NCBI GenBank assembly: GCA_003973385.1 | Contig: QNYK01000062.1 | Coordinates: 81,763-145,762 of the forward strand | Direction: 5' to 3' | From: Bacillota bacterium | GTDB taxonomy: Bacteria > Planctomycetota > UBA8108 > UBA1146 | DNA: 64,000 nucleotides | Position numbers and translations under genes: made by a program | Part shown: piece after piece, positions 16,866-63,539 of the stretch | How positions within the stretch are numbered: the first letter of the stretch is position 1 | How the letters are laid out: every line of letters begins with the position of its first letter | Notes under the pieces: generated by a model | The model's input: the letters and a program-made list of their open reading frames with translations, nothing else | Told to the model about the DNA's origin: nothing | The model's database searches: none

Positions 16866-18185
16866 TCAGGGGCAGGCGTCAAACTGGTCACAGGTGAGGT
16901 CGTCCTCGGTGGGATCGATTCCACATTCGTCAAACGGCGCAGCGGGAGGCGCACCACCCGAGAACATGTAGCTCAGCAGCAAGACAGGATCTCCCAGAAC
17001 GATGCTGCCACTGTCATCGATGTCACCATTCTTCTCGCAAGCGGAGGCCGTTCCACCGCTGAACATGTAATCGAGCAGGTTCACCGGATCGCCCAGATTG
17101 AGAGTTCCGTTGCCGTCAAAATCACCTCGCGTGAACTGGACGCCAAAAACTCCCTCGAGAATCTCGATCCCGGTGCCCGATGTCTGAACAACACCGGAGG
17201 TCGAACCGATCGAAACCACGATGGCTGTCGGAGGTGAAGGAGATTGCGGGATCAAGGTATCGGTAAAATCAAGGGTGGTGATGCCGAGCGGCGCCGTGGC
17301 GACCGCCTGATAGTGGCTGATGATCAACTCCTGGCCATTTCCAGCGGGGAGTGTCGTCAGATCGGAGAGCGAGTAGAGACAACCGACGACCAGGCCATCT
17401 GCCCCCACCGGATCGATATCCATGGTCAAGAATGCCGGTCCGTTACCGCCGTTGAGAGCAGTGAGGGCGGCCCCGGCATCCGCAGCCAGCAGCGTCAATG
17501 CAGCGCCAGAATGGGCGAAACCGAAGGAGAAACCGTAGTTCTCAACCGGCGCATCCAGCAGGATCTGGACGTCAACGTCGCCACCCTGCTCGACACTACT
17601 CGCAGAGGGCGAGGCACTCAATTCGAAGGGCAGTATTCCACCGATCTCGATGAGCCCATCGATGGTGGTCGGTTCGATGGCGATACCACCAGGCGCCACT
17701 GCGAGATTTTCGGAATTGGAAGAATCTCCCGGAAAAACTTCGGTGCAGTATTCGATGGCTGCAAAGGTATCGTCCGGGCCCAGCAACTGCGCTTGCATCA
17801 CGATCGCTTCATGGTCAGTGTCGATCGGCAAATCATTGAGTCCAACAAAGTTGATCACGACACCCTGTCTGACTCCGAATCCGGGAAACAGGCTCAGTTC
17901 AGCGAAATCAGCGGGTCCCCCAGCATTGGATGTGTTGGGTGCAGATCCATTGACCGCCTCGACCACTTCCATGCTGGAATCGTAACAGATGGCGATGGAC
18001 CAGCCCGCAAGAACCCCGCCGTTGTTATCGATCAACGATCGGGTGGTGACAACGGCGCCGGAAGGCCCGGAACTGCTGGTATCAAAGTGAAAGATGTAAT
18101 CAGGGTTCTGTGCTGCGATCGGGCTGGAGATGACCATCAGCAACAGAAGGCCGATGAGGTGCAACGGGATACGAAGGTGAACCAT
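16866..18185 (-). CDS. Secreted protein with cohesin-like N-terminal region(s) and a C-terminal type-I dockerin pair plus Cys tail
   Basis: Signal peptide MVHLRIPLHLIGLLLLMVISSPIAAQ (start chosen at this Met). Dockerin repeats RGDFDGNGTLNLGDPVNLLDYMF and KNGDIDDSGSIVLGDPVLLLSYMF. Tail PFDECG..C..C. Gly/Ala-rich beta-like middle region. Confidence 0.65.
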   Translation of the reverse strand: MVHLRIPLHLIGLLLLMVISSPIAAQNPDYIFHFDTSSSGPSGAVVTTRSLIDNNGGVLAGWSIAICYDSSMEVVEAVNGSAPNTSNAGGPADFAELSLFPGFGVRQGVVINFVGLNDLPIDTDHEAIVMQAQLLGPDDTFAAIEYCTEVFPGDSSNSENLAVAPGGIAIEPTTIDGLIEIGGILPFELSASPSASSVEQGGDVDVQILLDAPVENYGFSFGFAHSGAALTLLAADAGAALTALNGGNGPAFLTMDIDPVGADGLVVGCLYSLSDLTTLPAGNGQELIISHYQAVATAPLGITTLDFTDTLIPQSPSPPTAIVVSIGSTSGVVQTSGTGIEILEGVFGVQFTRGDFDGNGTLNLGDPVNLLDYMFSGGTASACEKNGDIDDSGSIVLGDPVLLLSYMFSGGAPPAAPFDECGIDPTEDDLTCDQFDACP

Positions 18186-18586
18186 GAATTGACTCCTGTT
18201 CGGGCGAGCACGTTGGAGGCGGTGATCGAACCGTAGTTCGAGCCCGAGGATGGCTCCGGGACCGATTATAGGCCCGTTCGGTGGCAATCTACCCGGTTTC
18301 GGGAATCACCGCACCCTCGCACTGACCACCGTTCCAGCGCAGAATCATGGTCAGATCGACCTATTGTAGCACTCGAACCCACTTTTCGGCACCCCTCCCC
18401 TGGCACCAGAAATGTCAATTGCTGCCGAATGTCCAGATCAGGGACACCCGGGCCGCATTCGGTACCGAGGTCGAGACCCGGACGCTGCCGCACCCCCACC
18501 ACAACCTCGATCCCCTGCGGGCACGGCGTTTGCCTCCCCTCCACCAGCACTGCGGTACTCCCGCGGCAGACGCAGAAAGGACCGAG

Positions 18587-26137: not shown

Positions 26138-27931
26138 ATGTCCTGCAGCCCCGTCCCCACCGCTCTAACCCCTCTCGGCGTGGATGGGTTCACTCCAGAC
26201 CCGCGGATCTCGCTGCGGATCACCTGTCTCTGCCTGGCCCTGGCGGGCTGTGATGCAGGATCCTCGACTCCGCAGGTGCTGGTCGATATCACCGATGACA
26301 CCGGAATCCACTTCTGGCATGACAACGGCATGACCGGGGAACTCTATTTCTGTGAGACGGTCGGACCAGGGTCAGCATTCCTGGATTTCGATGGTGACGG
26401 TGATCTGGATATCTTTCTCCTCCAGGGGAGGTTGCTGGGCGACACCAAGCAGGAATCGGACCGGATCTTCACGCCCCCGGCTGGGCAGCCGACGGGGGCC
26501 AGATTGTATCGGAACGAAGGGGTCAATGATCTGGGTATCCCGCAGTTCATCGATGTGACCACATCGTCCAGGATCGATGCGAGTGGGTACGGGATGGGAT
26601 GTGCCGTGGGAGACATCGAGGGCGATGGTGACCCCGATCTTTACCTGACACAATTCGGCGAAGATCAGTTGTGGGTCAATCAAGGCGACGGCACTTTCAT
26701 CGACGGAACCGAGCAAGCAGGGCTAGGCGATGGTCGCTGGACTACCAGTGCCATCTTCATCGACATCGATGCCGATGGAGATGAAGATCTGTATGTTTGT
26801 TCCTACATCGATTTCACCCTGAAAAATCACAAACCCTGTTTCTCCGAGAGCAGTGCAGTCGAATACTGTGGGCCCAGTTCCTATACACCGCTGCCCGATC
26901 GCATTTACCGTAACCGCGGAGATGGCACCTTTGAGGAGATGACCTCTGCCAGTGGAATAGGAGCACAACCGGGCGCTGGTCTCGGTGTCGTATGTTCAGA
27001 TCTCGATGCAGATGGAAGGCTGGACTTCTATGTCGCCAACGATGGCATGGCCAATCGACTGTGGCGACAGGTGGCACCGTTTGTATTCGAGGATACAGCA
27101 CTGCTGGCCGGGTGCGCACTGCTGGCCGGGTGCGCGTACAACAGGGATGGTCGCCCGGAGGCTTCGATGGGAGCAGACCTCGCTGATTACGATGGAGATG
27201 GAGACGAAGATATCTTCGTCACTCACCTGACCGGAGAAACGAACACGCTCTACACCAACAATGGCAAGGGCATATTCGATGATGAGTCCTCACGATCGGG
27301 ACTCGGTGTTCCCAGTCGTCGTTGGACTGGATTCGGGACCGCGTGGTTTGATCTCGAAAATGATGGTGATCTCGATCTATTCGTCACAAACGGCGCAGTG
27401 AAACGGATGGAAGAACGAGTCGCTGCGGGCGACCCCTACCCTCTCGATCAACCCGATCAACTCTTCATCAATCGAGACGGAAAACACTTCGAGGAGATCG
27501 CTGCAGCCAGGGCCACGGTGCTTCAAGAGGAATCTGTGGGTCGAGGTGCTGCATTTGGAGACATCGACAACGATGGAGACATTGATATTCTCGTCAGTAA
27601 TAACTGCGGGAATGTTCGCCTTCTCCAGAACAGGGTCGGGGCCAGCAACTCATGGATCGGCCTCGATATCCGCAATGATGGAAACCGGGTCGAGACAGGA
27701 GTCCGGTGTGAAATCCGGCAGGGCGATCAGTCGGTCATATATAGACGATCTCGACGAGGAGGATCCTACCTGTGCAGTAACGATCCACGTATCTCGGTGG
27801 GTCTGGGGACGCGCACGGAGAATTGCGAAGTGACGATATTCTGGTTCGACGGTTTGATCGAAGTCTTCGAGGATCTTTCACTGCGCCGATATCACACGCT
27901 GCGCCATGGCGAAGGGATTCCAAGGCGATGA
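26138..27931 (+). CDS. CRTAC1/ASPIC-UnbV family protein with FG-GAP/VCBS-type repeats
   Basis: Repeated D-x-D-x-D-G-D-x-D calcium-binding beta-propeller repeats (DFDGDGDLDIFL, DIEGDGDPDLYL, DIDADGDEDLYV, DLDADGRLDFYV, DYDGDGDEDIFV, DLENDGDLDLFV, DIDNDGDIDILV). UnbV/ASPIC-like C-terminus (GGSYLCSNDPRISVGLG). Lipoprotein-like N-terminus. Confidence 0.8.
   Translation: MSCSPVPTALTPLGVDGFTPDPRISLRITCLCLALAGCDAGSSTPQVLVDITDDTGIHFWHDNGMTGELYFCETVGPGSAFLDFDGDGDLDIFLLQGRLLGDTKQESDRIFTPPAGQPTGARLYRNEGVNDLGIPQFIDVTTSSRIDASGYGMGCAVGDIEGDGDPDLYLTQFGEDQLWVNQGDGTFIDGTEQAGLGDGRWTTSAIFIDIDADGDEDLYVCSYIDFTLKNHKPCFSESSAVEYCGPSSYTPLPDRIYRNRGDGTFEEMTSASGIGAQPGAGLGVVCSDLDADGRLDFYVANDGMANRLWRQVAPFVFEDTALLAGCALLAGCAYNRDGRPEASMGADLADYDGDGDEDIFVTHLTGETNTLYTNNGKGIFDDESSRSGLGVPSRRWTGFGTAWFDLENDGDLDLFVTNGAVKRMEERVAAGDPYPLDQPDQLFINRDGKHFEEIAAARATVLQEESVGRGAAFGDIDNDGDIDILVSNNCGNVRLLQNRVGASNSWIGLDIRNDGNRVETGVRCEIRQGDQSVIYRRSRRGGSYLCSNDPRISVGLGTRTENCEVTIFWFDGLIEVFEDLSLRRYHTLRHGEGIPRR
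27101..27136. repeat. 18-bp perfect tandem duplication inside the CRTAC1-family gene (ACTGCTGGCCGGGTGCGC x2; encodes ALLAGCALLAGC)
   Basis: Read directly at ~27101-27136. Confidence 0.7.
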
Positions 27932-29532
27932 GATCGAGGTTGCCGCGCATACTGCTGATTCTGGCGTGGCTGTCGATGCCTGGCTGTGATTCCCGTTCAC
28001 CACTGCCTGAACCTCCTCAATTGGTGGGACTGGAACAAGGGGTCGTCGAGCATCTGGATCGGACCTATGCGACACTTCAGCAGGCACAGGAGAGTCTCAC
28101 GGGGATCGAACTGGGTGCCGCATATGGTGATGCTGCCATCACCTATCATGCGTACGATTTACCGATGACCGCTCACTCCTGCTACCAGCGAGCACTGGAT
28201 CTGGATCCCGATACTGCCCGTTGGAAGTACCTGATGGCGATGATCAAGGTCCAACTGGGCCAGGAGGCGCAGGCGACTCGGCTCTATCTGGAGGTGCTGG
28301 AACTGATTGCAGAGCATCCCCCGACACTGGCAGCACTCGGAGAACTCAAACTCGAAGTCGGTGAACCAGAGGTTGCCGGGTCATACTATCGACGGTTGCT
28401 GGATCTTCAGCCCAACAGTGCGCCTGCGCTGGCAGCGCTGGGAAAGATTGCACTGGAGGCAGACCGTCCACAACTCGCCGTCGACTTCCTCGAACAGGCG
28501 CTGTCACTCTCTCCCGCTGCTTCAGGATTGCGCTACCCCCTGGGTCTGGCGCTTCGAGATCTCGGCCACACTGATCGCGCCATCGAGCAGATGAAAGCGC
28601 GCGGGGATGCCTACCCGAGAGTCGCAAATCCATGGCTTGACGAGGTAAAAAGCCGTCCGGTCGGGGCCAGGATTGCCCTCAATAGAGGAACCACACTGTT
28701 TCAGGAGGGTCTGTTCGAGCAGGCTCGCGACCAGTTCGAGCAAGCCTGCTCAGCCGCTCCGGAATCCGCCACTGCTCACCTCAATCTGGGTTCCGCACTG
28801 GCAAAATTGAATCTGATCTCCGAGGCGATTGCCGAATACGAGCAAGCGATACTGCTCGACCCGGACTCGACGATCGCGTGGTTTGACCTGGGTGTTATTC
28901 ATGCCTCGTTGAATCAGGAGTCCCAGGCGATTCGATGTTACGACCAGGCACTCCTCATCCATCCTGACAACGCGGAAGCAAGATTCAACAGGGCAAATGC
29001 CCTGCGGAGACTGGGAAATTACCTGGAAGCCGCTGCCGAGATGAAAATGGTTCGCACTCTGCGCCCGGGCAACAGCACTGCATGGCTTGCAGAAGCTGTC
29101 TGTTACCTGCGAATCGAGCAGAGGAACGCTGCTCGCATGACCTGCATCGATGGTCGAATCGCGACCGGAAATGACGCCAGGTTGATCAGCCTATCGGCGC
29201 GCATCACAGCCACGGATCCATCCCCCACCACGGAGCAACTGGCCTCCCATCTGGAGGAGATCGAGCAACTGTTGAAGGTTCAAACCACACTCGAACTGGT
29301 AGAGACCAAGGCGATGCTACTGGCTGCTCAGGGTCTCTTCGAAGAAGCGATCGAGTGGCAAAATGCGGCACTGGAGGCTGCTCTTGGTGCCGGCCGCGAG
29401 GACATTGCCAGACGTCTGACCGGCAACCGTGATCGCTACTCCCGAGGAGTTGCCGCGTCCGACCCCTGGCCCGAGGAATCTTCAGGAGCTACTTCCGATT
29501 CTGGAGGCGGCAAGAGGTCAACCTCGCAGTGA
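27928..29532 (+). CDS. TPR-repeat lipoprotein
   Basis: ATGA start/stop overlap with the preceding gene (27928-27931). Lipobox LSMPGC. More than 10 TPR-like 34-aa repeats (e.g. AIRCYDQALLIHPDNAEARFNRANALRRLGNYLEA). Confidence 0.75.
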   Translation: MRSRLPRILLILAWLSMPGCDSRSPLPEPPQLVGLEQGVVEHLDRTYATLQQAQESLTGIELGAAYGDAAITYHAYDLPMTAHSCYQRALDLDPDTARWKYLMAMIKVQLGQEAQATRLYLEVLELIAEHPPTLAALGELKLEVGEPEVAGSYYRRLLDLQPNSAPALAALGKIALEADRPQLAVDFLEQALSLSPAASGLRYPLGLALRDLGHTDRAIEQMKARGDAYPRVANPWLDEVKSRPVGARIALNRGTTLFQEGLFEQARDQFEQACSAAPESATAHLNLGSALAKLNLISEAIAEYEQAILLDPDSTIAWFDLGVIHASLNQESQAIRCYDQALLIHPDNAEARFNRANALRRLGNYLEAAAEMKMVRTLRPGNSTAWLAEAVCYLRIEQRNAARMTCIDGRIATGNDARLISLSARITATDPSPTTEQLASHLEEIEQLLKVQTTLELVETKAMLLAAQGLFEEAIEWQNAALEAALGAGREDIARRLTGNRDRYSRGVAASDPWPEESSGATSDSGGGKRSTSQ

Positions 29533-30863
29533 GCGCGGATCTCCTCTTCAGCGTCAACGACCTCCATGGTGGTCCCCTGCTTGAGGACCCATGCACCCCT
29601 CGACAGTTGATAGGTCAAATCGAAGCGCAGATGTGCTGCACGTGCGCCGCATCTACCGCCAGGCATATCGAGCTTGATTCGAGCCGGATAGCGGCCCCCT
29701 TCGAGCCAGGACTTGACTTCCAGCTTCCACAACAACTGACCAGAATCATCGAAGATGGACTCCTCGATGATTCGCCCTGAATCGACATCGAAGTGGATGC
29801 GAGCATGGTCGGCGTTCCGGATGGTCCCTTCCCAGTAGGAGATATTCAGAAGCCCGATACCTGCGTGTCGAAATGGAAAGCCCGAGACCTGCAGCAGAAT
29901 CACACCACTGTCAGAATCGGAATCCGAGACCGACTCGGGAAGAGTCCCTGAAGGAGTGCAAAATAGCAGGTCAGCTGCAGTTCGCAGGTGAATCACCCGA
30001 TCCAGGTCGTATCCCATCATCCGGATCGACTCCATATCCTCGACCTTGGCGTGAATCTCTATCTCCTTGCTGGAATCGGAAGCAAAATTCACCATGGAGA
30101 AGTTGTAGTCGAGCCGCGCAGGTGGCCGAGCTCGACCGACCCAGCCCTCGTTGGCGTTGAACAACTTGCGGAAGCCGGCAACGTCCTTGCCCGCTGCAGC
30201 ACTGGCGGAGATCCACTTTTCCCGGGAAGTGGCACTGATTCTCGAATCGAGCAGCCGAAGGCGCATCCTCGAGAGATCTGCATCGGTGGGATTGGACTGG
30301 TACGCTCGCTCGATGGCATCGAGGGCCAGAACTTTACAGCGGGTCATCTTTGCCGTTTGCTCGGCTTCGCCTCCCGATACACGGCGAAAAGCAAGTTGAG
30401 ACTGAGGCAAGATCTGGGATTGAAGTCCCCGCATCGCTGCAACCCTCAGAAGTCGTTCCGGGTGGCCCAGAAGTGGTTCGAGAATCTTCGCGATCCGGGT
30501 GTCCGAGATGTAGCCAAAACCGTGTGCAGCGGCCTCCTGGCTATGCACATTGTCGGTGGCGAGGCAGCGCGCGAAGAAGTTGAACGCCTGGTCGGGAAAA
30601 GCTCGCAACACGAGCATGGTGACTCGCCTGCGAAGGGAAGAATCCTTCCGGGTGAGAAACTGCTCCAGATCAGGAAGTAGCGTTGCATCACGGTTGAGCA
30701 GGATCTGCTCCACGGCACGCTGATGAGTGGGAGGCTCAGGGGCCTGCAGGTCACGCAGAAGATCTGCTCGTATCCGGTCAATTTTGCCGGGTTCATCCCC
30801 GGCGAGAGGAAGGCAGACCACCAGTGCTAGTGCGAGCAGTAGCCATGAACTTCGCTGGAACAA
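29436..30863 (-). CDS. Secreted hypothetical protein with HEAT/ARM-like helical repeats and an SD-rich linker
   Basis: Signal peptide MFQRSSWLLLALALVVCLPLAG. Repetitive helical region. SDSDSDSG linker. The 3' end overlaps the convergent TPR gene by ~97 bp, so one stop or end may be mis-assigned. Confidence 0.5.
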   Translation of the reverse strand: MFQRSSWLLLALALVVCLPLAGDEPGKIDRIRADLLRDLQAPEPPTHQRAVEQILLNRDATLLPDLEQFLTRKDSSLRRRVTMLVLRAFPDQAFNFFARCLATDNVHSQEAAAHGFGYISDTRIAKILEPLLGHPERLLRVAAMRGLQSQILPQSQLAFRRVSGGEAEQTAKMTRCKVLALDAIERAYQSNPTDADLSRMRLRLLDSRISATSREKWISASAAAGKDVAGFRKLFNANEGWVGRARPPARLDYNFSMVNFASDSSKEIEIHAKVEDMESIRMMGYDLDRVIHLRTAADLLFCTPSGTLPESVSDSDSDSGVILLQVSGFPFRHAGIGLLNISYWEGTIRNADHARIHFDVDSGRIIEESIFDDSGQLLWKLEVKSWLEGGRYPARIKLDMPGGRCGARAAHLRFDLTYQLSRGAWVLKQGTTMEVVDAEEEIRAHCEVDLLPPPESEVAPEDSSGQGSDAATPRE

Positions 30864-31025
30864 GATGAGACTCCTTCAGGGCGTCAGGTTACAGGTCAAT
30901 GGTGCCGACTCCCAACCAATGGATGGGTAGACGGAGACGATACAAGGTTTACAATAGACACTCCGTAAACTTTGTTAGTCAGGAGAGGTCCCTGCCCCCT
31001 CCTGTCATTTTCGCACTTCCCACTC

Positions 31026-33872
31026 ATGAATTCGCGGAGGTTTTCGATGCGTTCGAAACTCATTCCGACCTTCATCCTGCTACTTTGCTGCACTCAGATC
31101 CAGGCTCAGTCTCAGACGCCAGCCTCGGTGTCACAGACCTCAGGAGCCCTGGCACCTCCAGCCGGATCCACCTCTGCCCCGATGATCCCAGGAGATGTCA
31201 TCCAGTTTGTAGGACATGGCGGCAGCAATCCACTGGGAATTTGCATAGATGAACCGCAACGGCGGCTCTATGTCTGCGATCTCTTCAGCGGAACCACGCA
31301 CCTCTACAACATCGACGACCTGTCAGCGGGAGTGGTATCCACCATTTCCAATCCTGCGGGTAGCGTTTCCACCAATGGGATTGCCATCTCGGGTCAGCAC
31401 ATCTACTGGGTGGTTCCAGGAGCGTCCCCGAATCTGTGGAGAACTCTCAAGGATGGCACCAATCCGCAAGTTCACGGAAACCTGACACTACCTGGAGGGG
31501 GAATCGTTGGTGACATCTGCATCACGTCAGATCAAACGATGTGGGCAGTGGATGTCACCAATGATCAGTACAGCAGCCATCTCCTCAATGGGGAATTTTC
31601 AGGATCGATCATCGGACATCCAGCAGGTAGCGGCGCTGGCAACAGCATCGCTTATCGCAGCGACTGCAACCTATTGCTGGTTCCACACAATGTTCCCGGC
31701 GCCACCATCGTCACTGCCATCAGCACGATGGATTCGTCTGGAGTGCTCAGAGCCGAGACGGACATCTCATCGCTGGGAGGATTCATCAACGGGATTGCGC
31801 ATGTTTCCAGCGGCTCTCAGGGAGTCCCATCGGTGTTTCTCGTCGACGCCTCCATGAATCGTATCTATGAACTGGAATCTCAACCTGCGTGCCCTGCACC
31901 GCAACTCAGTGGGCAACATGAGTTCGAGATCTGCGGCCCGACCGGACTGAACGACATCAATGACACCTCCCTGCTGATGGAGATGGTGCACTTTGACCAC
32001 TACGGAACAGTGCGAGATGTTGACATCTACCTGGAGATGGAACATGACTTTGCTGCTGACATCACCGTCAACATCACGAGCCCTGCAGGAACCACGGTGA
32101 GCTTGCTCTCAGAAACACAGTACAGCGGAAGTTTGTGGGGACTGGTCTTTGACACCGACGGCCAGGGGCTTTATCCGGACGGACCCGGTTCACTGGATGA
32201 TTTCGACGGTCAGGAGATCCACGGAAACTGGATCTTGACGATCATCGATCCTTACCCCGGCTCCGATGGCACACTCTCCAACTGGTGCGTCAGAATCGAT
32301 GAGGAAACGAAACGGTTGCACAGAGGGGTATTTCCGGTGCTTCATGCCACGGGTATCCAGAATCAGGCGATCAGCCAATCGATTCCGATCCAGGACTCGG
32401 TCACCATCACGGAGGGATACAGTGCCATCGATCTGGATGTGGGCATTGACCTGATCCACGGCTTTCTTTCAGACCTGGCCATCCGAATCGCCAGCCCACT
32501 GGGGACAGAGGTGACCTTGCTGGGCCTGGGACCGGCAACTGCGGGTGAGATTCACACCACATTCGATCAACAGGGCATCGAGTATGCCCCCGACAGTTTA
32601 CCGACAGGGCAACAGATGGCACCTCAAGGGCCCGGGGCCCTGTCCGACTTCCTGGGGGAAGCAGTCCAGGGTGACTGGACGCTGCTCGTAGATGACAGCG
32701 TGACGACTGACGATGGAGTACTCCAGAACTGGAGTCTGGATCTACTGGAACCAGTGCTGCTCAACTCATCTGGGAACCCCCTGGAGTTCAACATTGAAGT
32801 TCAGGAAAACATCGCAGTAGCCGATATCGAGGTGGATCTTCAACTGATGCATCCAGCGATCGACCAGATTCATGTCACATTGACATCGCCCCAGGGAACC
32901 GTGGCGATTCTGGAGAGCTTCGGAGGGTATGCCGGGACAGCGATCCACTGCATTTACGACACCAGCGGAATCGCCTACGACGAGGCACTCGTCGCAGAAG
33001 GAATTCGCATGCAACCTGCAGGTTCGCTCGAAGCATTCATCGGTGAATCGATGCAAGGCATCTGGACGCTGAAAGTTCAGGACAATCTATCGAGCAGCCA
33101 GGGTTGGCTGACCGATCTTGCCCTGATCATCCATGGTGATGATGCGCCATGTTTGGCCCCCACCGTGACCGCAATCAGTTCCACTCTGGCCACCGATATC
33201 CCGTTCCCGATTGCATTCTCTGGAACACTCGGTGGCACCGCGGCAGACTTTCTGTACTGGGACTTCGGCGATGGCACCGGTTCTGCTGACCTGAATACAG
33301 TTCACCTGTACTTGGTCCCAGGAACCTATGTCGTACGCTTGACCGTGGAAAACCCGTGCGGGACAGCATTTTCTCAGCTTTCCGTGATCGTCTGTGAAGC
33401 ACCGGTTGCGAATTTCGATTTGCTCGGCTGGATCGGCATCGCACCCTATTGCGCCGAATTTCAAAACCTTTCCACCGGAACCATAGACCATCTCATGTGG
33501 GATTTTGGTGATGGATCCACCGTTCAGAACAACGGGGATGCCGCCTTCAATTACGACGCCCCAGGTTACTACAGCGTGACGCTGGACGCGTACGGCACCT
33601 GCGGCACCACATCGACGATGACCAGAAACAACGAGATCAAGGTGCTGTCGATGGGAGATGTCAATGCTGATGGCGCGCTGGACACATCTGATCCGATCAC
33701 ATTGGTTCTCTACCTCTTCGGAGCCGGAGGAGTCCTACCCTGTCCAAAATCTGGAGACGTCAATGGAGACCAATTGTTGAACCTCGGCGATGTGGTCCAC
33801 CAGTTGATGTTCTTGTTCGGCGGTGGCTCGGACTCGGCCCCGGTGAACAATTGCGGATCGTGTGATATCTGA
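31026..33872 (+). CDS. Large secreted multidomain protein: N-terminal propeller-like region, three proprotein-convertase P-domain-like modules, two PKD domains, C-terminal type-I dockerin pair and Cys tail
   Basis: Signal peptide MNSRRFSMRSKLIPTFILLLCCTQIQAQ. Three ~110-aa repeats resembling the PC P-domain (..DVDIYLEMEHDFAADITVNITSPAGTTVSLL..GNWILTIID..; ..DLAIRIASPLGTEVTLL..GDWTLLVDD..; ..IHVTLTSPQGTVAILE..GIWTLKVQD..). PKD motifs (WDFGDGTGS..YVVRLTVEN; WDFGDGST..YSVTLDAYG). Dockerin repeats GDVNADGALDTSDPITLVLYLF and GDVNGDQLLNLGDVVHQLMFLF. Tail NNCGSCDI. Confidence 0.75.
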   Translation: MNSRRFSMRSKLIPTFILLLCCTQIQAQSQTPASVSQTSGALAPPAGSTSAPMIPGDVIQFVGHGGSNPLGICIDEPQRRLYVCDLFSGTTHLYNIDDLSAGVVSTISNPAGSVSTNGIAISGQHIYWVVPGASPNLWRTLKDGTNPQVHGNLTLPGGGIVGDICITSDQTMWAVDVTNDQYSSHLLNGEFSGSIIGHPAGSGAGNSIAYRSDCNLLLVPHNVPGATIVTAISTMDSSGVLRAETDISSLGGFINGIAHVSSGSQGVPSVFLVDASMNRIYELESQPACPAPQLSGQHEFEICGPTGLNDINDTSLLMEMVHFDHYGTVRDVDIYLEMEHDFAADITVNITSPAGTTVSLLSETQYSGSLWGLVFDTDGQGLYPDGPGSLDDFDGQEIHGNWILTIIDPYPGSDGTLSNWCVRIDEETKRLHRGVFPVLHATGIQNQAISQSIPIQDSVTITEGYSAIDLDVGIDLIHGFLSDLAIRIASPLGTEVTLLGLGPATAGEIHTTFDQQGIEYAPDSLPTGQQMAPQGPGALSDFLGEAVQGDWTLLVDDSVTTDDGVLQNWSLDLLEPVLLNSSGNPLEFNIEVQENIAVADIEVDLQLMHPAIDQIHVTLTSPQGTVAILESFGGYAGTAIHCIYDTSGIAYDEALVAEGIRMQPAGSLEAFIGESMQGIWTLKVQDNLSSSQGWLTDLALIIHGDDAPCLAPTVTAISSTLATDIPFPIAFSGTLGGTAADFLYWDFGDGTGSADLNTVHLYLVPGTYVVRLTVENPCGTAFSQLSVIVCEAPVANFDLLGWIGIAPYCAEFQNLSTGTIDHLMWDFGDGSTVQNNGDAAFNYDAPGYYSVTLDAYGTCGTTSTMTRNNEIKVLSMGDVNADGALDTSDPITLVLYLFGAGGVLPCPKSGDVNGDQLLNLGDVVHQLMFLFGGGSDSAPVNNCGSCDI

Positions 33873-36047
33873 TCAGTTCCTCGTTTGGGAATGAAAGCCA
33901 GCGTTCTTGCTGGCGAGTTCCACAAGCAGATCACAGGGGCTTCGTGCTGACCCGGCTTCATGGGCGGCACGAAGCCTTTTTTCAATTTGCGGCAAACCCT
34001 CGGAATCTGCTGCGCGCAGTGGACCTCCAAGGTGAGGTGGGTACCCCGTTCCCATCACCATCGCAAGATCGAGAATCCCAGCATCCAGAACCACATTTTC
34101 TTCAAGGCAGCGAGCGGCTTCATCGACCATCGGGTCGAGCAAGGAAGAGATGATATCGACGTCTGACATCGTCCGTGCAGATGCCTTGATCATTGTTTTG
34201 ACCTGCTGATTCCAGGTCAAACTAGTGCCCCTGTGCAGGTAAAAACCGATTCCGGCCTTCTTGCCGAGCCAGCCTTTCTCGACCATTTTCTGTAGCATCG
34301 GCGAGGCCGCTGCTCTCTCTCCGAAGGAAGCGTGAAGTGTCTCCTGAACCTCAAACCCGATATCGAGTCCCACTTCGTCCATCAGGCGAAAGGGGCCCAT
34401 CGGCAAGCCATGTCTTCGAGCGACCGCATCGATGTGGGCGCCACTGACTCCATCGAGCAACAGCCGAGACGCCGCATCCAGGTAGGGCAGAAGCAGTCTG
34501 TTGACAAGGAAACCTGGTGAGTCCTTCACGAGCACCGGATACTTTCCCAGTTTCCTGGCGAGCGCCAGGGCGATTCCGACCGTTTCAGGAGCTGTTTGCT
34601 CTCCAGGAATCACCTCGACCAGCGGCATCCGTGGAACCGGATTGAAGAAGTGCAAGCCAACCACCCTGGAGGCAATCGGACTTCCATGCTGGATCTCGGT
34701 GACACTCAGTGCGGAAGTATTCGTGGCAAAGATCGCCTCATCACCGAGCAGGGGCGCGACTTCGGCAAGGACAGAACGCTTGACGTCCAGGCGTTCGACC
34801 ACGGCTTCCAGCACTCCAGCGCAACGCCCCAGACCGATGAGGTCTTTTCCATGACCGAGCCTGGAAAGGATCTCAGCTTGTTGGTATCGGGTGAACCGTC
34901 GCTTCTTTCTTCGTTGATCGATGGCGGATCCGATCAGTTTCAAAGCTCGATCCAGGGACTCCAGCGAGATGTCACGCAACCTGACAGGGATGGACTTCTC
35001 GATGGCGATCGTGGCCACCCCCGAACCCATGACCCCGGCTCCCAGAATCATGAGGCTTCGATCCTCTGGCCAGCTCCCATCGGGGTCTCCATCGGTTCCT
35101 CGCCTCACCCGCTCAGAATCCTGGAAAATCGACACGAGATTCCTGCAAACCGGACCGGTGGCGAGACGAGAAACGGCCATCGCCTCCATCTCCAGGGAAT
35201 GTCGTTCATCCTTGTGAGCTGAAAGCCTCGCCACTTCGATGGCTTTCTCGGGAGCAGGCATGTGGCCGAGTGTCCGCGCGCGAACAGTTTTGAGCGCCTT
35301 TTTACAGACGATGGTGCGACCGAGGGTGGTCTCATCGAGCAGGTAAGAGAAGAACCCCTTCCTTCGTTTCTTTCTGCGAGCACGAACCGACCGGAAGCCG
35401 TCGGATACCATCTGCTCGATCAGTTGCAGTGAGAGCTCTCGAAATCCTTCAGTGGGAACCGTGGCGTCGAGCACTCCCTTGCGGTAGGCAATCGGGGCGG
35501 GCAGCCTGCTGGCCGGCAGTATCCAGCCGAGGGAAGCGCGCAAGCCCAGCAGCCTGGTCAGACGTACTGTGCCGCCGAAGCCGGGAATGATGCCAAGATT
35601 CACCTCAGGAAAACCGATCCTGGTCCTGGGATCGGAAACTCCTATGCGGGCGGTACATCCCAGAGATAACTCGAGACCTCCACCGAGACAGGTGCCTCGG
35701 ATGACCGCTATCGAGGGGATGGAAAGAGAGCTCAATCTCCCGAACAGGTCCTGTGCGCGTCGACATGCATCCACAACCTGGTCAACGTTCTCTGCAGATC
35801 CGATCGCATTGACATCTGCACCGGCAATGAAATGGTCCTGCTTGGCGCTGGACACGATCACGGCGTCGACACCCTGATGGTTTCCGATGTCATCGATCTG
35901 GCTGGAGAGGTCCGTCAGTACATCCTCGCTCAATACATTGGCACTGCTCTCTGCATCTATGATCAGGTGCAACCAGCGCCCTTCAGGATCGGCTTCAGGA
36001 ATTGCTGCATCCCAACCGGATGATCGGATCAGTCTCCATTGACTCAT
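33873..36047 (-). CDS. Fatty-acid oxidation multifunctional protein alpha subunit (enoyl-CoA hydratase / 3-hydroxyacyl-CoA dehydrogenase), FadB/FadJ-like
   Basis: N-terminal crotonase fold (FIAGADVN). Central Rossmann motif ILGAGVMGSGVA. C-terminal 3HCDH domains. Start chosen at MSQWRL, giving an ATGA overlap with the thiolase gene. Confidence 0.85.
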   Translation of the reverse strand: MSQWRLIRSSGWDAAIPEADPEGRWLHLIIDAESSANVLSEDVLTDLSSQIDDIGNHQGVDAVIVSSAKQDHFIAGADVNAIGSAENVDQVVDACRRAQDLFGRLSSLSIPSIAVIRGTCLGGGLELSLGCTARIGVSDPRTRIGFPEVNLGIIPGFGGTVRLTRLLGLRASLGWILPASRLPAPIAYRKGVLDATVPTEGFRELSLQLIEQMVSDGFRSVRARRKKRRKGFFSYLLDETTLGRTIVCKKALKTVRARTLGHMPAPEKAIEVARLSAHKDERHSLEMEAMAVSRLATGPVCRNLVSIFQDSERVRRGTDGDPDGSWPEDRSLMILGAGVMGSGVATIAIEKSIPVRLRDISLESLDRALKLIGSAIDQRRKKRRFTRYQQAEILSRLGHGKDLIGLGRCAGVLEAVVERLDVKRSVLAEVAPLLGDEAIFATNTSALSVTEIQHGSPIASRVVGLHFFNPVPRMPLVEVIPGEQTAPETVGIALALARKLGKYPVLVKDSPGFLVNRLLLPYLDAASRLLLDGVSGAHIDAVARRHGLPMGPFRLMDEVGLDIGFEVQETLHASFGERAAASPMLQKMVEKGWLGKKAGIGFYLHRGTSLTWNQQVKTMIKASARTMSDVDIISSLLDPMVDEAARCLEENVVLDAGILDLAMVMGTGYPPHLGGPLRAADSEGLPQIEKRLRAAHEAGSARSPCDLLVELASKNAGFHSQTRN

Positions 36048-49037: not shown

Positions 49038-49112
49038 TGACCCCAAGGGGATTCGAACCCCTGTTCTCAGGATGAAAACCTGATGTCCTGGACCTGACTA
49101 GACGATGGGGCC
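49038..49112 (-). tRNA. tRNA-Glu (anticodon UUC)
   Basis: Hand-folded cloverleaf on the minus strand: acceptor GGCCCCA/TGGGGTC, anticodon loop TTTTCAT (UUC), T-arm GGGGTTCGAATCCCC. CCA is not encoded. Confidence 0.8.
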
Positions 49113-49123
49113 TCGATTTCAAG

Positions 49124-49196
49124 TGAGAGCAGTTGGGCTCGAACCAACGACCGACGCCTTAAAAGGGCGTTGCTCTACCGACTGAGCTATGCTCCC
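49124..49196 (-). tRNA. tRNA-Lys (anticodon UUU)
   Basis: Minus-strand cloverleaf: GGGAGCA-TA-GCTCAGTCGGTAGAGC-A-ACGCC-CTTTTAA-GGCGT-CGGTC-GTTGGTTCGAGCCCAAC-TGCTCTC-A. Confidence 0.8.
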
Positions 49197-60991: not shown

Positions 60992-61945
60992 TTAAAAGAT
61001 GTTTCGCCCAATCGAAGCTGACTTGTGAATCTGTCGGATCGAATTGGCGAAGGCCGGTGCACATGACAACAGTGTTACCCTATCATCGAATATCTTTCCG
61101 TCCACGGGAATGGTATCGACAACCGCAAACTCCTCCGCAGGACTGGCCTGAAGCCGCTCCACCGCAGGTCCACAGAACACAGGATGAGTGCATGCGAGAT
61201 ATACCGATTTTGCGCCCTTCTCGAGGATCAGATCGGCGGCCTTGGTGATCGAGCCACCGGTGGCGATGACATCGTCAGCGATGATCGCGTGAAGTCCTGC
61301 GACTTCTCCGATGATGAAACCGATCTCGGTCTCCTCCCCGCTCACTCGACGCTTATCGACGGTAGCCAATCGGGCTCCAAGTCCTCGGCTATACGCACGA
61401 GCCATCTTGATGGCTCCGACATCGGGACTCACCACGACCAGGTCGGTCATGTTCTTCTTGGCGTAGTGATCGATGATGATCGAACCTGCGTAGACATGAT
61501 CCACCGGGATATCGAAAAAGCCCTGGATCTGCTCACAATGCAGATCCATCGTCACGACACGATCTGCACCTGAAGCGACGATCAAGTTGGCGACAAGTTT
61601 GGCGGTGATCGGAACCCGTGCGCCCTGTTCACGTCTATCTTGACGGGCATATCCAAAGTATGGAATCACTGCAGTGATTCGCGCAGCAGATGATCGTTTG
61701 ACACAATCAATCATCACCAATAGTTCCATCAGGTTCTCATTGACGGGAGGGCAGGTGGATTGAACAACGAATACATCCTTACCCCGAACATCTTCCTCCA
61801 GAGTCACCGAGATCTCGCCATCCGGAAATCGAGTGACCTTGGCACTGCCACTATCGAGCCCCAACTCGGAACAGATTTTGTTCGCCAAGGCCCGGTTCGA
61901 GTTGCCACTGATGACCACCATGCGGTCTGAAAGTTTCTGGCTCAT
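60992..61945 (-). CDS. prs: Ribose-phosphate pyrophosphokinase
   Basis: PRPP-binding loop IIGEVAGLHAIIADDVIATGGSI, N-terminal FSGNSNRALA-like motif. Confidence 0.9.
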   Translation of the reverse strand: MSQKLSDRMVVISGNSNRALANKICSELGLDSGSAKVTRFPDGEISVTLEEDVRGKDVFVVQSTCPPVNENLMELLVMIDCVKRSSAARITAVIPYFGYARQDRREQGARVPITAKLVANLIVASGADRVVTMDLHCEQIQGFFDIPVDHVYAGSIIIDHYAKKNMTDLVVVSPDVGAIKMARAYSRGLGARLATVDKRRVSGEETEIGFIIGEVAGLHAIIADDVIATGGSITKAADLILEKGAKSVYLACTHPVFCGPAVERLQASPAEEFAVVDTIPVDGKIFDDRVTLLSCAPAFANSIRQIHKSASIGRNIF

Positions 61946-63261
61946 CGGATCTCTCTTTCATCATCACGAACATCGTCTGCAAGGTCCTGTTGCGATTTTC
62001 TCTCCCGTGCAGGAACACCCAGGACAGTCGTTCCTGGGTGGACATCCCTTCCGGGAGGAACCACCGCTCCTGCTGCCACCACGGCACCAGCACCGATGTT
62101 GCCCGGAGCCACGATGACGGAACCACTGCCGATGAATGCGTTCTCACCGATGGTAGTCGGAGACTTCTTAACCCCATCGTAATTTGCCACCACAGCTCCA
62201 GCTCCGATATTGGCTCCCGACTCGACTTTTGTATCGCCGAGATAGGCGAGGTGCTTGGCTCGAACTCCATCTGCAAGCTCGCTCCTGTTGATCTCGACGA
62301 AATCGCCCACCTTCACATCGTCACCGATCACGGTTCCGCCCCTGAGATGTGCAAAAGGGCCGATCTCACAACAGGTCCCCACCCGGACGCCTCGCCGGAT
62401 GATCGTCTGGGGATGGATCACGGTATCCTCACCGATCGACACCCCGAATTCGACCCAGGTCGTGGTCGGGTCGACAATCGTCACGCCTTGTTCCAGAAAC
62501 CGCTGCTGCAATCTGTCCTGAATAATTCTGGATACCCGAGCCAGTCCTACTCGATCGTTGACCTGAAGGAACTGGTGGTCGACTCCGACCCCTATCGCAT
62601 CGACGACCATCGATCTCTGAACCAGCACCTCGACCAGCCGGGTCAGGTAGCTCTCTCCTGCAGTTTCCTTGCCAGAGAGGTCCCCTGCCACCATCTCGTC
62701 GAGCACTGGTGTCACCATCTCTGCATCGAGCACGTACAGGCCCAGATTGACCTCGTCGATGGCGCGTTCAGTATCGGAGGCTTGTTCCTCTTCCACGATG
62801 GAGATGAAATCGCCTGTCTGATCGCGAACAATGCGCCCCATGCCGGTCGGATCCGCCACTCGCGCGGTCGCCACTGAAAAAGCCGACGAGCTCTTCCCGT
62901 GGTCCGCCACGAATGAAGCCAGCAGTGTGGGATCCAGATCAGGCAGATCCCCGTTGACGACCAGAACCTGCGCACAAGCGGGCGGCTGCTGTCGAAGTGC
63001 AGCCAGCAATGCGTCGGCGGTTCCGAGTTGTTGTTGCTGAATCGCAATTCGAATGGAAGAGTCGCCAAGGCAACCACGGACTTCATCGGCTCCATGCCCC
63101 AGGACCACTATCAGGTCAGCGGCACCAGCCTCGCGCACACTACCAGTGATCACCTCGATCATCGGAACACCAAGGATTTCATGGAGAACCTTGGGACGTT
63201 GAGACTTCATTCGCGACCCTCGTCCCGCAGCCAGCAAAATGGCGGAGAATTTCGGGTCCAT
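61942..63261 (-). CDS. glmU: Bifunctional UDP-N-acetylglucosamine pyrophosphorylase / glucosamine-1-phosphate N-acetyltransferase
   Basis: N-terminal LAAGRGSRMKS..PKVLH nucleotidyltransferase motif. C-terminal hexapeptide-repeat acetyltransferase domain. 4-nt overlap with prs. Start chosen at MDPKFSAIL. Confidence 0.9.
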   Translation of the reverse strand: MDPKFSAILLAAGRGSRMKSQRPKVLHEILGVPMIEVITGSVREAGAADLIVVLGHGADEVRGCLGDSSIRIAIQQQQLGTADALLAALRQQPPACAQVLVVNGDLPDLDPTLLASFVADHGKSSSAFSVATARVADPTGMGRIVRDQTGDFISIVEEEQASDTERAIDEVNLGLYVLDAEMVTPVLDEMVAGDLSGKETAGESYLTRLVEVLVQRSMVVDAIGVGVDHQFLQVNDRVGLARVSRIIQDRLQQRFLEQGVTIVDPTTTWVEFGVSIGEDTVIHPQTIIRRGVRVGTCCEIGPFAHLRGGTVIGDDVKVGDFVEINRSELADGVRAKHLAYLGDTKVESGANIGAGAVVANYDGVKKSPTTIGENAFIGSGSVIVAPGNIGAGAVVAAGAVVPPGRDVHPGTTVLGVPARERKSQQDLADDVRDDEREIR

Positions 63262-63352
63262 CGAAGCAGTCCTGTCTTGCTGCACCCTCAGGTTGGTAAT
63301 GGGTACAGATGTTGTAGCGATACATACGCCCATTGGTGGTCGTGACCAAGAA

Positions 63353-63427
63353 TGGCTACCCGGCGAGGACTCGAACCTCGAATGACTGGACCAAAACCAG
63401 TTGTGTTGCCAATTACACCACCGGGTA
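63353..63427 (-). tRNA. tRNA-Gln (anticodon UUG) with genomically encoded CCA
   Basis: Minus-strand cloverleaf: U1:A72 first pair and G73 discriminator (bacterial Gln identity), D-arm GTGT/ACAC, anticodon loop TTTTGGT, T-arm CGAGGTTCGAGTCCTCG, then CCA. Confidence 0.75.
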
Positions 63428-63539
63428 GCAACAGTCCGTTCCTGGAACGAGGACTCCCCCTCCATCGAAGCAGAGCCTGCTCGTCGCTGATTGATTCTAG
63501 CCTCGCACCGGATGGAGCGTCAATCGAGCCGGAGGGGTT

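Follow-up and report, generated by a model that had tools for sequence, protein, structure and literature searches.

A conserved, putatively secreted planctomycetal protein with a five-bladed propeller, three P-domains, two PKD domains and a dockerin-type tail

Introduction

A gene in the 64-kb window, the whole stretch of DNA analysed here, raises the question of what three P-domains do in a protein in which no protease domain was recognised. The preliminary description proposed a surface adhesin or enzyme scaffold, and regarded the architecture as unusual on the ground that P-domains normally accompany subtilisin/kexin catalytic domains. The analysis below points to a fairly ordinary modular, putative surface protein and to no disguised protease.

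Results and Discussion

The gene and its conservation

The gene is an intact single open reading frame on the + strand, with its end at 33872 and a TGA stop codon at 33870–33872 in the ORF listing. The maximal frame, from a TTG at 30972, encodes 966 aa, and the frame from 31026 encodes 948 aa. The orthologues, of 941–944 aa, begin with MRS, which corresponds to the ATG at 31047, and a Shine-Dalgarno-like GGAGG lies at 31036–31040 (+), 6 nt upstream of this ATG. Reading of the sequences gave the same GGAGG-N6-ATG arrangement in the orthologous loci L001 and L002. The complete gene is therefore placed at 31047–33872 (+), encoding 941 aa plus the TGA stop; the length of 966 aa and the start at 31026 given previously were slightly off.

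Full-length homologues were found in Planctomycetota MAGs at 64–100% identity, and the protein is collinear over its full length with six orthologues at 64–100% identity. It is restricted to 11 species. The open reading frame is thus real and not a chance one, and its product is a conserved, putatively secreted protein of uncultured Planctomycetota.

The gene sits between one divergent and one convergent gene, and the synteny around it, which includes housekeeping genes, is conserved. An assignment of function from operon context was rejected, because the gene is flanked by housekeeping or unrelated genes, and such conserved synteny is uninformative for function. Promoter and terminator scans flanking the gene gave results at chance level, and no RNA families were found within or adjoining it.

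At the N-terminus, a Sec-type signal peptide, MRSKLIPTFILLLCCTQIQA, is predicted at 31047–31106 (+), with a basic n-region, a hydrophobic core and an A-x-A-like site; the candidate cleavage position before Q was obtained using a crude −3/−1 rule script and by reading of the sequence. Among the secreted proteins of this organism, there is a tendency for Gln to follow the signal peptide directly, and no literature on such a "Q-rule" in Planctomycetes was found. The signal peptide is followed by a Ser/Thr/Pro-rich linker at 31107–31181 (+), predicted to be disordered (pLDDT below 50 in the full-length model), in which the motif SVSQTSGAL is kept among close orthologues.

The N-terminal propeller

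The head of the protein, at 31182–31895 (+), is a five-bladed beta-propeller with YWTD/NHL-type blades, and is covered by no Pfam model. The AlphaFold2 model of the N-terminal region of about 240 aa is an all-beta propeller of 20 strands with a pLDDT of 90.3 and a pTM of 0.89, which bears out the propeller-like region suggested earlier; the five blades of the model agree in number with five "hhhxD" blade motifs. Searches with Pfam, and also with NCBIfam, gave no peptidase family at E ≤ 1 for the whole protein; for the first 317 aa, none was found up to E = 10. A hidden N-terminal peptidase was rejected on the basis of these searches and of the propeller fold, and the absence of a protease domain, as first described, holds.

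In fold, the propeller is nearest to type-I glutaminyl cyclase (3mbr, 3nok) and the C-terminal domain of YjiK (3qqz), whereas its best Foldseek E-values are to NHL domains. In sequence, the profile of close orthologues (A2) gave nothing significant against the PDB sequence set, and a broader family profile (A6) was needed. Among the best 60 of its 94 matches, this profile found LRP6 (E = 1e-11), the archaeal S-layer protein 1l0q (3e-9), nidogen (3e-7) and TRIM NHL domains (1e-4), and no glutaminyl cyclase chain. Within the same 60 of 94, the solved structures nearest in sequence are those of ligand-binding, non-enzymatic YWTD propellers. The blades are thus homologous at the sequence level to those of YWTD (LDL-receptor class B), YVTN and NHL propellers, although YWTD and NHL propellers have six blades and YVTN propellers seven, while the present one has five; the window protein has no Pfam match to Ldl_recept_b or NHL. 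At 50% identity, the propeller family falls into at least 272 clusters; it has no Pfam or NCBIfam model. Among 57 propeller relatives, 17 are combined with P-domains and 19 with Dockerin_1, some further ones carry other jelly-roll modules, and none (0/57) has a catalytic Pfam domain.

An alternative is that the protein is a dockerin-borne enzyme, with a catalytic propeller (glutaminyl-cyclase-, lactonase- or lyase-like) supported by the adjoining P-domain as in kexin/furin. The enzymes Drp35 and virginiamycin B lyase are among the sequence-level matches, a cyclase would act on the N-terminal Gln of the secreted proteins of this organism, and the close orthologue group has an invariant His/Asp-rich patch (D126, D130, H135, H148 and H171 in domain numbering), which, from the sequence, might form a metal-binding or an active site. 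However, this patch is not conserved in the wider family, where conservation throughout is confined to structural G, P, W and D residues; over 70 domain instances, the polar positions conserved at 70% or more are D35, D126 and E232 only. Neither a Lys nor an Asn was seen among the conserved positions, and a catalytic constellation shared by the family was not recognised in these sequences. In papaya glutaminyl cyclase, the catalytic residues named are E69, N155 and K225 (PMC5837995).

The family searches also argue against an enzyme. The type-I cyclases (Glu_cyclase_2, PF05096) share the five-bladed fold, but the identity of the propeller to type-I glutaminyl cyclase and YjiK is 12–17% (13–17% to the cyclases), and Glu_cyclase_2 gave no match at E ≤ 10 on the N-terminal region and none in the 57 relatives at E ≤ 0.01. 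The window protein has no other enzyme-family match above cut-off. In the 57 relatives, no other enzyme family was found at E ≤ 0.01, beyond sub-threshold SGL and Vgb_lyase matches in two members each. Sequence membership in the SdiA-regulated/YjiK family (PF06977) was likewise not found: the matches to it are sub-threshold only (3/57 relatives), and an hhalign comparison of the family profile with E. coli YjiK yielded a probability of 0.8%. In addition, the strongest relatives are the non-enzymatic YWTD propellers, and a 941-aa protein limited to 11 species would be unexpected for a housekeeping cyclase. A catalytic propeller is therefore regarded as unlikely, and it would be very unlikely that the propeller is a new catalytic family on a cohesin–dockerin scaffold, for example a cyclase or lyase with a fold akin to that of type-I glutaminyl cyclase, with the P-domain stabilising a non-protease catalytic domain. 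If this were true, a planctomycetal "planctosome" (see below) would have its first enzyme subunit in this propeller, which might also be tied to the apparent N-terminal Gln preference of the secreted proteins. A binding role of the propeller is more in line with these results. It was counted against a binding head that some propellers of this superfamily are enzymes (Drp35, Vgb lyase, glutaminyl cyclase).

The P-domains and PKD domains

The propeller is followed by three copies of PF01483 (P_proprotein), with an overall score of 130.9 bits relative to a cut-off of 21, so that the three P-domain-like modules proposed at first are P-domains. P-domain 1 (31992–32366, +) gave 48.2 bits (E = 1.1e-12) over profile positions 2–85 of 86, and was modelled with beta-strand content at a pLDDT of about 70; P-domain 2 (32367–32753, +) gave 50.5 bits (E = 2.3e-13) with a pLDDT of about 79, and P-domain 3 (32754–33143, +) gave 47.1 bits (E = 2.5e-12) with a pLDDT of about 77. 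The matches extend over about aa 330–423, 470–572 and 599–700 in the 948-aa numbering, and the three domains are mutually divergent (26–30% identity). An assignment of the repeats to CARDB, Big or another beta-sandwich family was rejected, with PF01483 as the sole match; neither this alternative nor an N-terminal peptidase, each of which was expected to overturn the first reading, was found.

The two PKD domains are also confirmed, with PKD_4 at 73.4 bits (cut-off 27) and PKD at 60.4 bits (cut-off 23.5), each in two stretches. PKD domain 1 (33144–33401, +) matches PF18911 and PF00801 above their cut-offs, has a pLDDT of 80–91, and its PDB matches are PKD domains of an archaeal S-layer protein and of collagenases. 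PKD domain 2 (33402–33650, +) is the second PF18911/PF00801 stretch, matches the PKD domain of 6aem (E = 1.5e-5) and has a pLDDT of 82–88. NCBIfam gave a single sub-threshold PKD-like match and nothing more.

As in the proprotein convertases kexin and furin (MEROPS S8B), the P-domains score well above the cut-off and have the C-terminal motif G-x-W-x-L-x-V-x-D...G-x-L-x-x-W-x-L. The differences are that no Peptidase_S8 domain with its Asp-His-Ser catalytic residues is found anywhere in the present protein, and that its P-domains are in tandem, divergent and variable in number between orthologues. The protein is thus P-domain-containing and not a convertase. P-domains that lack a protease are nothing out of the ordinary: each of the 22 nearest relatives of the P-domain region has PF01483 without Peptidase_S8, in a list that is a sample and not a census, as this search missed the orthologues of the protein itself. 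Together with the 17 and 19 of 57 propeller relatives noted above and a published precedent (PMC6461901), this leaves the earlier view of the architecture as unusual unsupported.

The identity among orthologues is 70–90% in the head and 74–86% in the tail, compared with 48–71% in the P-domain and PKD modules. Syntenic orthologues keep the head and the tail, while P0007 has four P-domains and eight PKD domains and P0008 has four and two, respectively. The copy number of these modules is thus variable between syntenic orthologues, and they therefore look like a stalk. In the full-length model, the domains are well folded, although the pTM is only 0.38 and the linker between the propeller and the P-domains has a pLDDT of 39–63. 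The combination indicates an arrangement like beads on a string, with no confident packing between the propeller and the P-domains, which also argues against an enzyme supported by its P-domain as in kexin/furin. When the whole 948-aa model was compared with the PDB by Foldseek, the only matches were to generic multidomain structures at TM ≤ 0.15, including SorCS2, GhpA, 1l0q and one kexin-like Aeromonas protease (3wqb).

The dockerin-type tail

The C-terminal module at 33651–33869 (+) matches solved dockerins when used as a profile and consists of two segments, each a Ca2+ loop plus a helix, ending in ...NCGSCDI. The calcium loops are DVNADGALDTSD and DVNGDQLLNLGD. In nine homologues, positions 1, 3, 5 and 12 of both loops, that is, all eight liganding positions, and three Cys are invariant. 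The helices were modelled at the expected places (aa 890–898 and 920–931) with low pLDDT. Dockerin_1 (PF00404) scored 17.5–18.1 bits, below the gathering score of 22.9; ten of 11 homologous tails match it at E ≤ 1, with a best value of 4.3e-6. The tail alone gave E = 2.8e-4 against solved type-I dockerins (4fl4_A), and the tail profile found 24 dockerin chains at E = 1e-8 to 3e-3, with EF-hand proteins at the weak end (E ≥ 0.01). The dockerin pair with a CGSC tail, as described before, is therefore upheld, though sub-threshold in Pfam. The top match of the dockerin profile is PDB 8x39, named just "Serine protease".

The tail resembles cellulosomal type-I dockerins (4fl4_A, 3ul4_B, 2y3n_B, 1daq) in its two segments of about 22 residues, each with a D-x-N-x-D-G-x-x-x-x-x-D calcium loop and then a helix, with profile-level homology at E = 1e-6 to 1e-4. 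It differs from them in that the host is a planctomycete, the protein has no carbohydrate-active enzyme module, a further invariant Cys separates the repeats, C-G-x-C is added at the C-terminus, the score is below the Pfam cut-off, and the cohesin partner is putative.

Three further proteins encoded in the window have tails with 36–51% identity to this one. Such a distribution could arise if the protein were an adhesin or S-layer-type protein, either free-standing or attached directly to the cell, in which the tail would not be a ligand for cohesin. The tail, common to many secreted proteins of the organism, would then be a disulfide-clamped, Ca2+-stabilised EF-hand pair with three invariant Cys, acting as an anchoring, folding or export signal. 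Four proteins in 64 kb with the same tail and a conserved Cys pattern look like carriers of a generic sorting or anchor module; the dockerin score is under the Pfam cut-off, and EF-hand proteins are among the weak matches of the tail profile. The combination of propeller and PKD domains is also a known S-layer architecture, as in the archaeal YVTN propeller 1l0q, which was matched in both sequence and fold searches. However, the tail profile matches cohesin-binding dockerins at 1e-8 to 1e-4, compared with 0.01 or above for EF-hand proteins, and a cohesin-like module on the same contig itself carries a tail of this kind, an arrangement like that of scaffoldin adaptors. An adhesin whose tail does not bind cohesin is accordingly considered fairly unlikely.

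Cohesin-like genes and the proposed assembly

The same contig has candidate partners for the tail. ORF 129–920 (−) encodes a cohesin-plus-dockerin protein, with matches to the cohesins 1aoh and 3kcp at E of about 2e-4 and to dockerins at about 2e-3; ORF 16866–18287 (−) has two copies of the same cohesin-like module and the same dockerin tail. The cohesin-like modules extend over about aa 25–175 in the first of these and about aa 50–215 and 234–380 in the second. These candidate cohesins are weak matches (E about 1e-4) located 13–30 kb from the gene, and they share no operon with it. Cohesin-like modules, dockerin-like modules and P-domains thus co-occur in the window.

A comparable set of modules has been described in the "planctosome", a hypothetical proposal for freshwater Planctomycetes (Andrei et al. 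2019, ISME J, PMC6461901), in which protease-less P-domain arrays are located on a cohesin-bearing lamin-tail-domain (LTD) anchor protein. The phylum is the same, and in both cases protease-less P-domain arrays and cohesin/dockerin modules occur on secreted proteins. By analogy, the present P-domain array might recruit or activate separately encoded, dockerin-bearing peptidases, a hypothesis published for arrays on a cohesin-bearing anchor (PMC6461901). Here, however, the P-domains follow a propeller in a protein of the cargo type, which bears a dockerin, and are not on an LTD/cohesin anchor or scaffold, the lineage is a different group of uncultured MAGs, and the P-domains are the least conserved, copy-variable part. 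No peptidase gene adjoins the locus, which is syntenic with housekeeping genes, and neither an LTD anchor nor a dockerin-bearing peptidase was seen within the 64-kb window. As the planctosome is itself hypothetical, a protease partner acting in trans is considered extremely unlikely.

The reading that we consider moderately probable is that the protein is a non-proteolytic, dockerin-borne binding subunit of a non-cellulosomal cohesin–dockerin assembly at the cell surface. The modular protein would be exported by the Sec pathway, as its sequence suggests; the five-bladed propeller would be the ligand-recognising head, and the three P-domains, which are galactose-binding-like jelly rolls, and the two PKD domains would form a semi-flexible stalk that may add secondary binding. 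Through its Ca2+-dependent dockerin module, the protein would dock at the cell surface onto a partner that bears cohesin and would thereby be a cargo subunit of the assembly. In terms of the functions proposed at first, a surface adhesin or scaffold-associated protein stands as the best functional reading, while a disguised protease does not. The planctomycete outer membrane would have to be crossed, which was counted against a surface assembly.

The biology of the locus is modest, and the locus is of some practical use. One contig holds a dockerin-bearing cargo protein and candidate cohesin partners, namely ORF 129–920 and probably ORF 16866–18287. Planctomycetal non-cellulosomal cohesin–dockerin systems are proposals, and the modules found here are short, clonable and directly testable. 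The locus also points to an uncurated five-bladed propeller family that is repeatedly paired with P-domains and dockerins. Finally, the name "subtilisin-like proprotein convertase family protein" is given at source to several relatives of the P-domain region that have no S8 domain, and, as a warning for annotation, "P-domain" should not be equated with "proprotein convertase".

Results and Discussion

Extent of the Gene

In the ORF listing, the target is a single long ORF ending at position 33872. The preliminary description assigned it 966 aa and a start at 31026; the former length belongs to the maximal ORF with a TTG start at 30972, and a start at 31026 gives 948 aa. All six full-length orthologues (941–944 aa, 64–100% identity) begin with MRS, corresponding to the ATG at 31047, and a GGAGG sequence at 31036–31040, 6 nt 5' of this ATG, is also present in the orthologous loci L001 and L002. 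These two facts place the gene at 31047–33872 (+), with a product of 941 aa, and the earlier length and start are replaced accordingly. Residue numbers refer to the 948-aa frame and are lower by seven in the real protein. The GC content is close to that of the surroundings.

P-Domains and PKD Domains

The Pfam scan matched P_proprotein (PF01483) to three stretches of the target with 130.9 bits in total. When scanned singly, the repeats scored 48.2, 50.5 and 47.1 bits against a cut-off of 21 bits, with near-complete coverage of the model, and no rival family was matched by them in Pfam, so that the three P-domain modules first read from the sequence were borne out over another beta-sandwich family. 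Their mutual identity is only 26–30%, which indicates that the array is old. Both PKD domains of the earlier reading scored above the Pfam cut-off, and in the PDB they match those of collagenases and an archaeal S-layer protein. No peptidase family was matched at any threshold in Pfam or NCBIfam, the N-terminal part included, in agreement with the protease-less architecture described before.

This architecture had been called unusual, a view that does not hold. All 22 of the nearest relatives of the P-domain region contain PF01483 and lack Peptidase_S8, with SLH, Calx-beta, HYR, DUF11, dockerin or RTX repeats as partner domains; several are labelled by their source as "subtilisin-like proprotein convertase family protein". 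Andrei et al. (2019, PMC6461901) have described secreted proteins of planctomycetes in which several P-domains occur together with cohesin/dockerin modules. The target is an uncharacterised example of a kind already known, namely modular, dockerin-bearing secreted proteins with protease-less P-domains. The same study proposed a peptide-degrading "planctosome", and in that style the P-domains could serve separately encoded peptidases, which is considered highly improbable for the target.

Propeller Head

The N-terminal region gave zero matches in Pfam and NCBIfam. The AlphaFold2 model of the head, computed from an alignment of eight orthologues, is all-beta with 20 strands (pLDDT 90.3, pTM 0.89), and the sequence carries five "hhhxD" blade motifs, which upholds the propeller-like N-terminus suggested earlier. 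A family profile of 22 sequences matched the YWTD propellers of LRP6 (1e-11) and nidogen (3e-7), the YVTN propeller of an archaeal S-layer protein (1l0q, 3e-9) and NHL domains (1e-4) in the PDB. The profile search over 1.84 billion cluster representatives returned 272 proteins at E ≤ 1e-3, each with one or two copies of the domain. Among 57 propeller-family proteins, Dockerin_1 was found in 19 and P_proprotein in 17, and a few bear jelly-roll domains (InhA-like MAM, GBD_T9SS_assoc, Reelin subrepeat B).

An enzymatic role of the propeller would be favoured by its cyclase-like fold and by a D/H-rich patch that is invariant in close orthologues. Glutaminyl cyclase or YjiK chains were absent from the best 60 of the 94 PDB matches of the head profile, and hhalign gave E. 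coli YjiK a probability of 0.8% against the family profile. A catalytic Pfam domain was found in 0 of the 57 proteins. Over 70 domain instances, conservation of 70% or more is confined to structural positions: Gly, Pro and Trp, a small number of hydrophobic residues, and the Asp/Glu positions of the blades. The enzymatic role is accordingly judged distinctly unlikely. The model, the blade motifs and the sequence relatives show that the head is a five-bladed propeller with YWTD/NHL-type blades, that the likeness to cyclases is one of fold only, and its family is one of five-bladed propellers as yet uncurated.

Dockerin Tail and Cohesin-Like Proteins

The tail, the last 73 residues, reaches 17.5–18.1 bits for Dockerin_1, below the cut-off of 22.9. 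The tail alone matched solved type-I dockerins (E 2.8e-4), and a profile built from it together with eight homologous and three paralogous tails matched 24 dockerin chains with E-values between 1e-8 and 3e-3, far ahead of ordinary EF-hand proteins. The loops DVNADGALDTSD and DVNGDQLLNLGD hold the canonical liganding positions 1, 3, 5 and 12, which are invariant in nine homologues, as are one inter-repeat Cys and the C-terminal C-G-x-C. The dockerin pair with a CGSC tail is thereby confirmed, sub-cut-off in Pfam, and the preliminary domain reading as a whole agrees with the Pfam P and PKD matches, the propeller model and the dockerin profile.

Three further ORFs of the window carry a target-type tail, 36–51% identical to that of the target. 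The first (129–920, −; 263 aa, secreted-looking) has a cohesin module at approximately residues 36–143 followed by the tail, an architecture resembling that of adaptor scaffoldins. Its Pfam Cohesin match is below the cut-off (E 0.025, 15.2 bits), its single sequence matched PDB entry 1aoh at E 2.6e-4, and its orthologue profile matched 3kcp and 1aoh (1.7e-4) and dockerins (about 2e-3). Judged from sequence, it is a candidate docking partner for the target. The second, a mechanically called ORF of 473 aa (16866–18287, −) without a Pfam match, contains two modules and a dockerin-type tail with four Cys; the modules matched the cohesin-like module of the first ORF (BLASTP against a database of four proteins, E 8e-19 and 3e-3), and its start is likely the Met at about 18185. 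The third (1082–1945, +; 287 aa) is the divergent neighbour of the first, with a signal-peptide-like start, an N-terminal domain without assignment and a sub-cut-off Dockerin_1 match (19.5 bits). These ORFs indicate that the organism encodes cohesin-like and dockerin-like modules in quantity, including adaptor-type proteins that combine the two. The locus is of value chiefly because concrete candidates for the dockerin and the cohesin of putative planctomycetal cohesin-dockerin assemblies lie on a single contig. That the tail is a generic anchoring or sorting module rather than a cohesin ligand seems unlikely.

Stalk, Conservation and Proposed Mechanism

Orthologue identity is highest in the propeller (70–90%) and the tail (74–86%), and is 48–71% in the P and PKD domains. 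Two distant orthologues keep both head and tail: P0007 (1553 aa), at the same chromosomal site, has four P-domains and eight PKD domains, and P0008 (1095 aa) has four and two. The full-length model has well-formed domains, but its pTM is 0.38 and its linkers are weak; nothing in it suggests that propeller and P-domain are fixed to each other as the catalytic domain and P-domain of furin are. Taken together, these features are consistent with two functional parts, the head and the anchor, linked by a stalk whose length can vary. The propeller gene occurs in 11 GTDB species, all uncultured Planctomycetota MAGs.

In the most likely mechanism, which is somewhat favoured, the target would be exported through its Sec signal peptide, its tail would dock Ca2+-dependently to a cohesin-bearing partner, holding it at the surface, and the propeller would be displayed as a ligand-binding head atop the P/PKD stalk.

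Predicted Signal Peptide

The predicted Sec signal peptide, from sequence reading and a crude check, is MRSKLIPTFILLLCCTQIQA followed by Q; the predicted signal-peptidase-I site and the Gln right after it are at 31104–31109. The target and the other three ORFs with this tail each have Gln after the predicted site (IQA-Q, LGG-Q, LSA-Q and IAA-Q), as do 26 of 53 propeller-family proteins under a crude −3/−1 rule. Gln follows 12.5% of candidate cleavage sites, compared with an overall Gln frequency of 2.4%. The pattern is reminiscent of the "Q-rule" of Bacteroidetes (PMC5837995), a study in which Planctomycetes were not covered; in the papers searched, no link between the two was found.

Genomic Neighborhood

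The target is solitary, with a divergent HEAT-like gene on one side and, on the other, a fadB-like/thiolase pair in convergent orientation. Its TGA stop (33870–33872, +) abuts the fadB-like stop (33873–33875, −) with zero spacer, which recurs in orthologous loci; the one terminator-like hairpin (33897–33914, −), at chance level, is within the fadB-like coding sequence. The product of the HEAT-like gene (29436–30863, −; 475 aa) begins like a signal peptide and matches HEAT_2 only faintly. The gene adjoins the target orthologue in L001, L002 and the P0007 locus L016 (about 37% identity overall), and a functional link with the target is possible. Just upstream, with conserved synteny, are an FG-GAP/ASPIC-UnbV repeat protein (26138–27931, +) and a long TPR protein (27823–29532, +), both secreted- or periplasmic-looking repeat proteins; VWA, ProRS and ArgRS genes follow downstream. 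Orthologous contigs retain this gene order even where identity falls to about 40%. A tRNA-Gln (63353–63427, −) is inside the mechanical ORF 61942–63465 (−), so that the real start of this ORF must be downstream of the tRNA, and tRNA-Glu and tRNA-Lys are in tandem at 49038–49196 (−).
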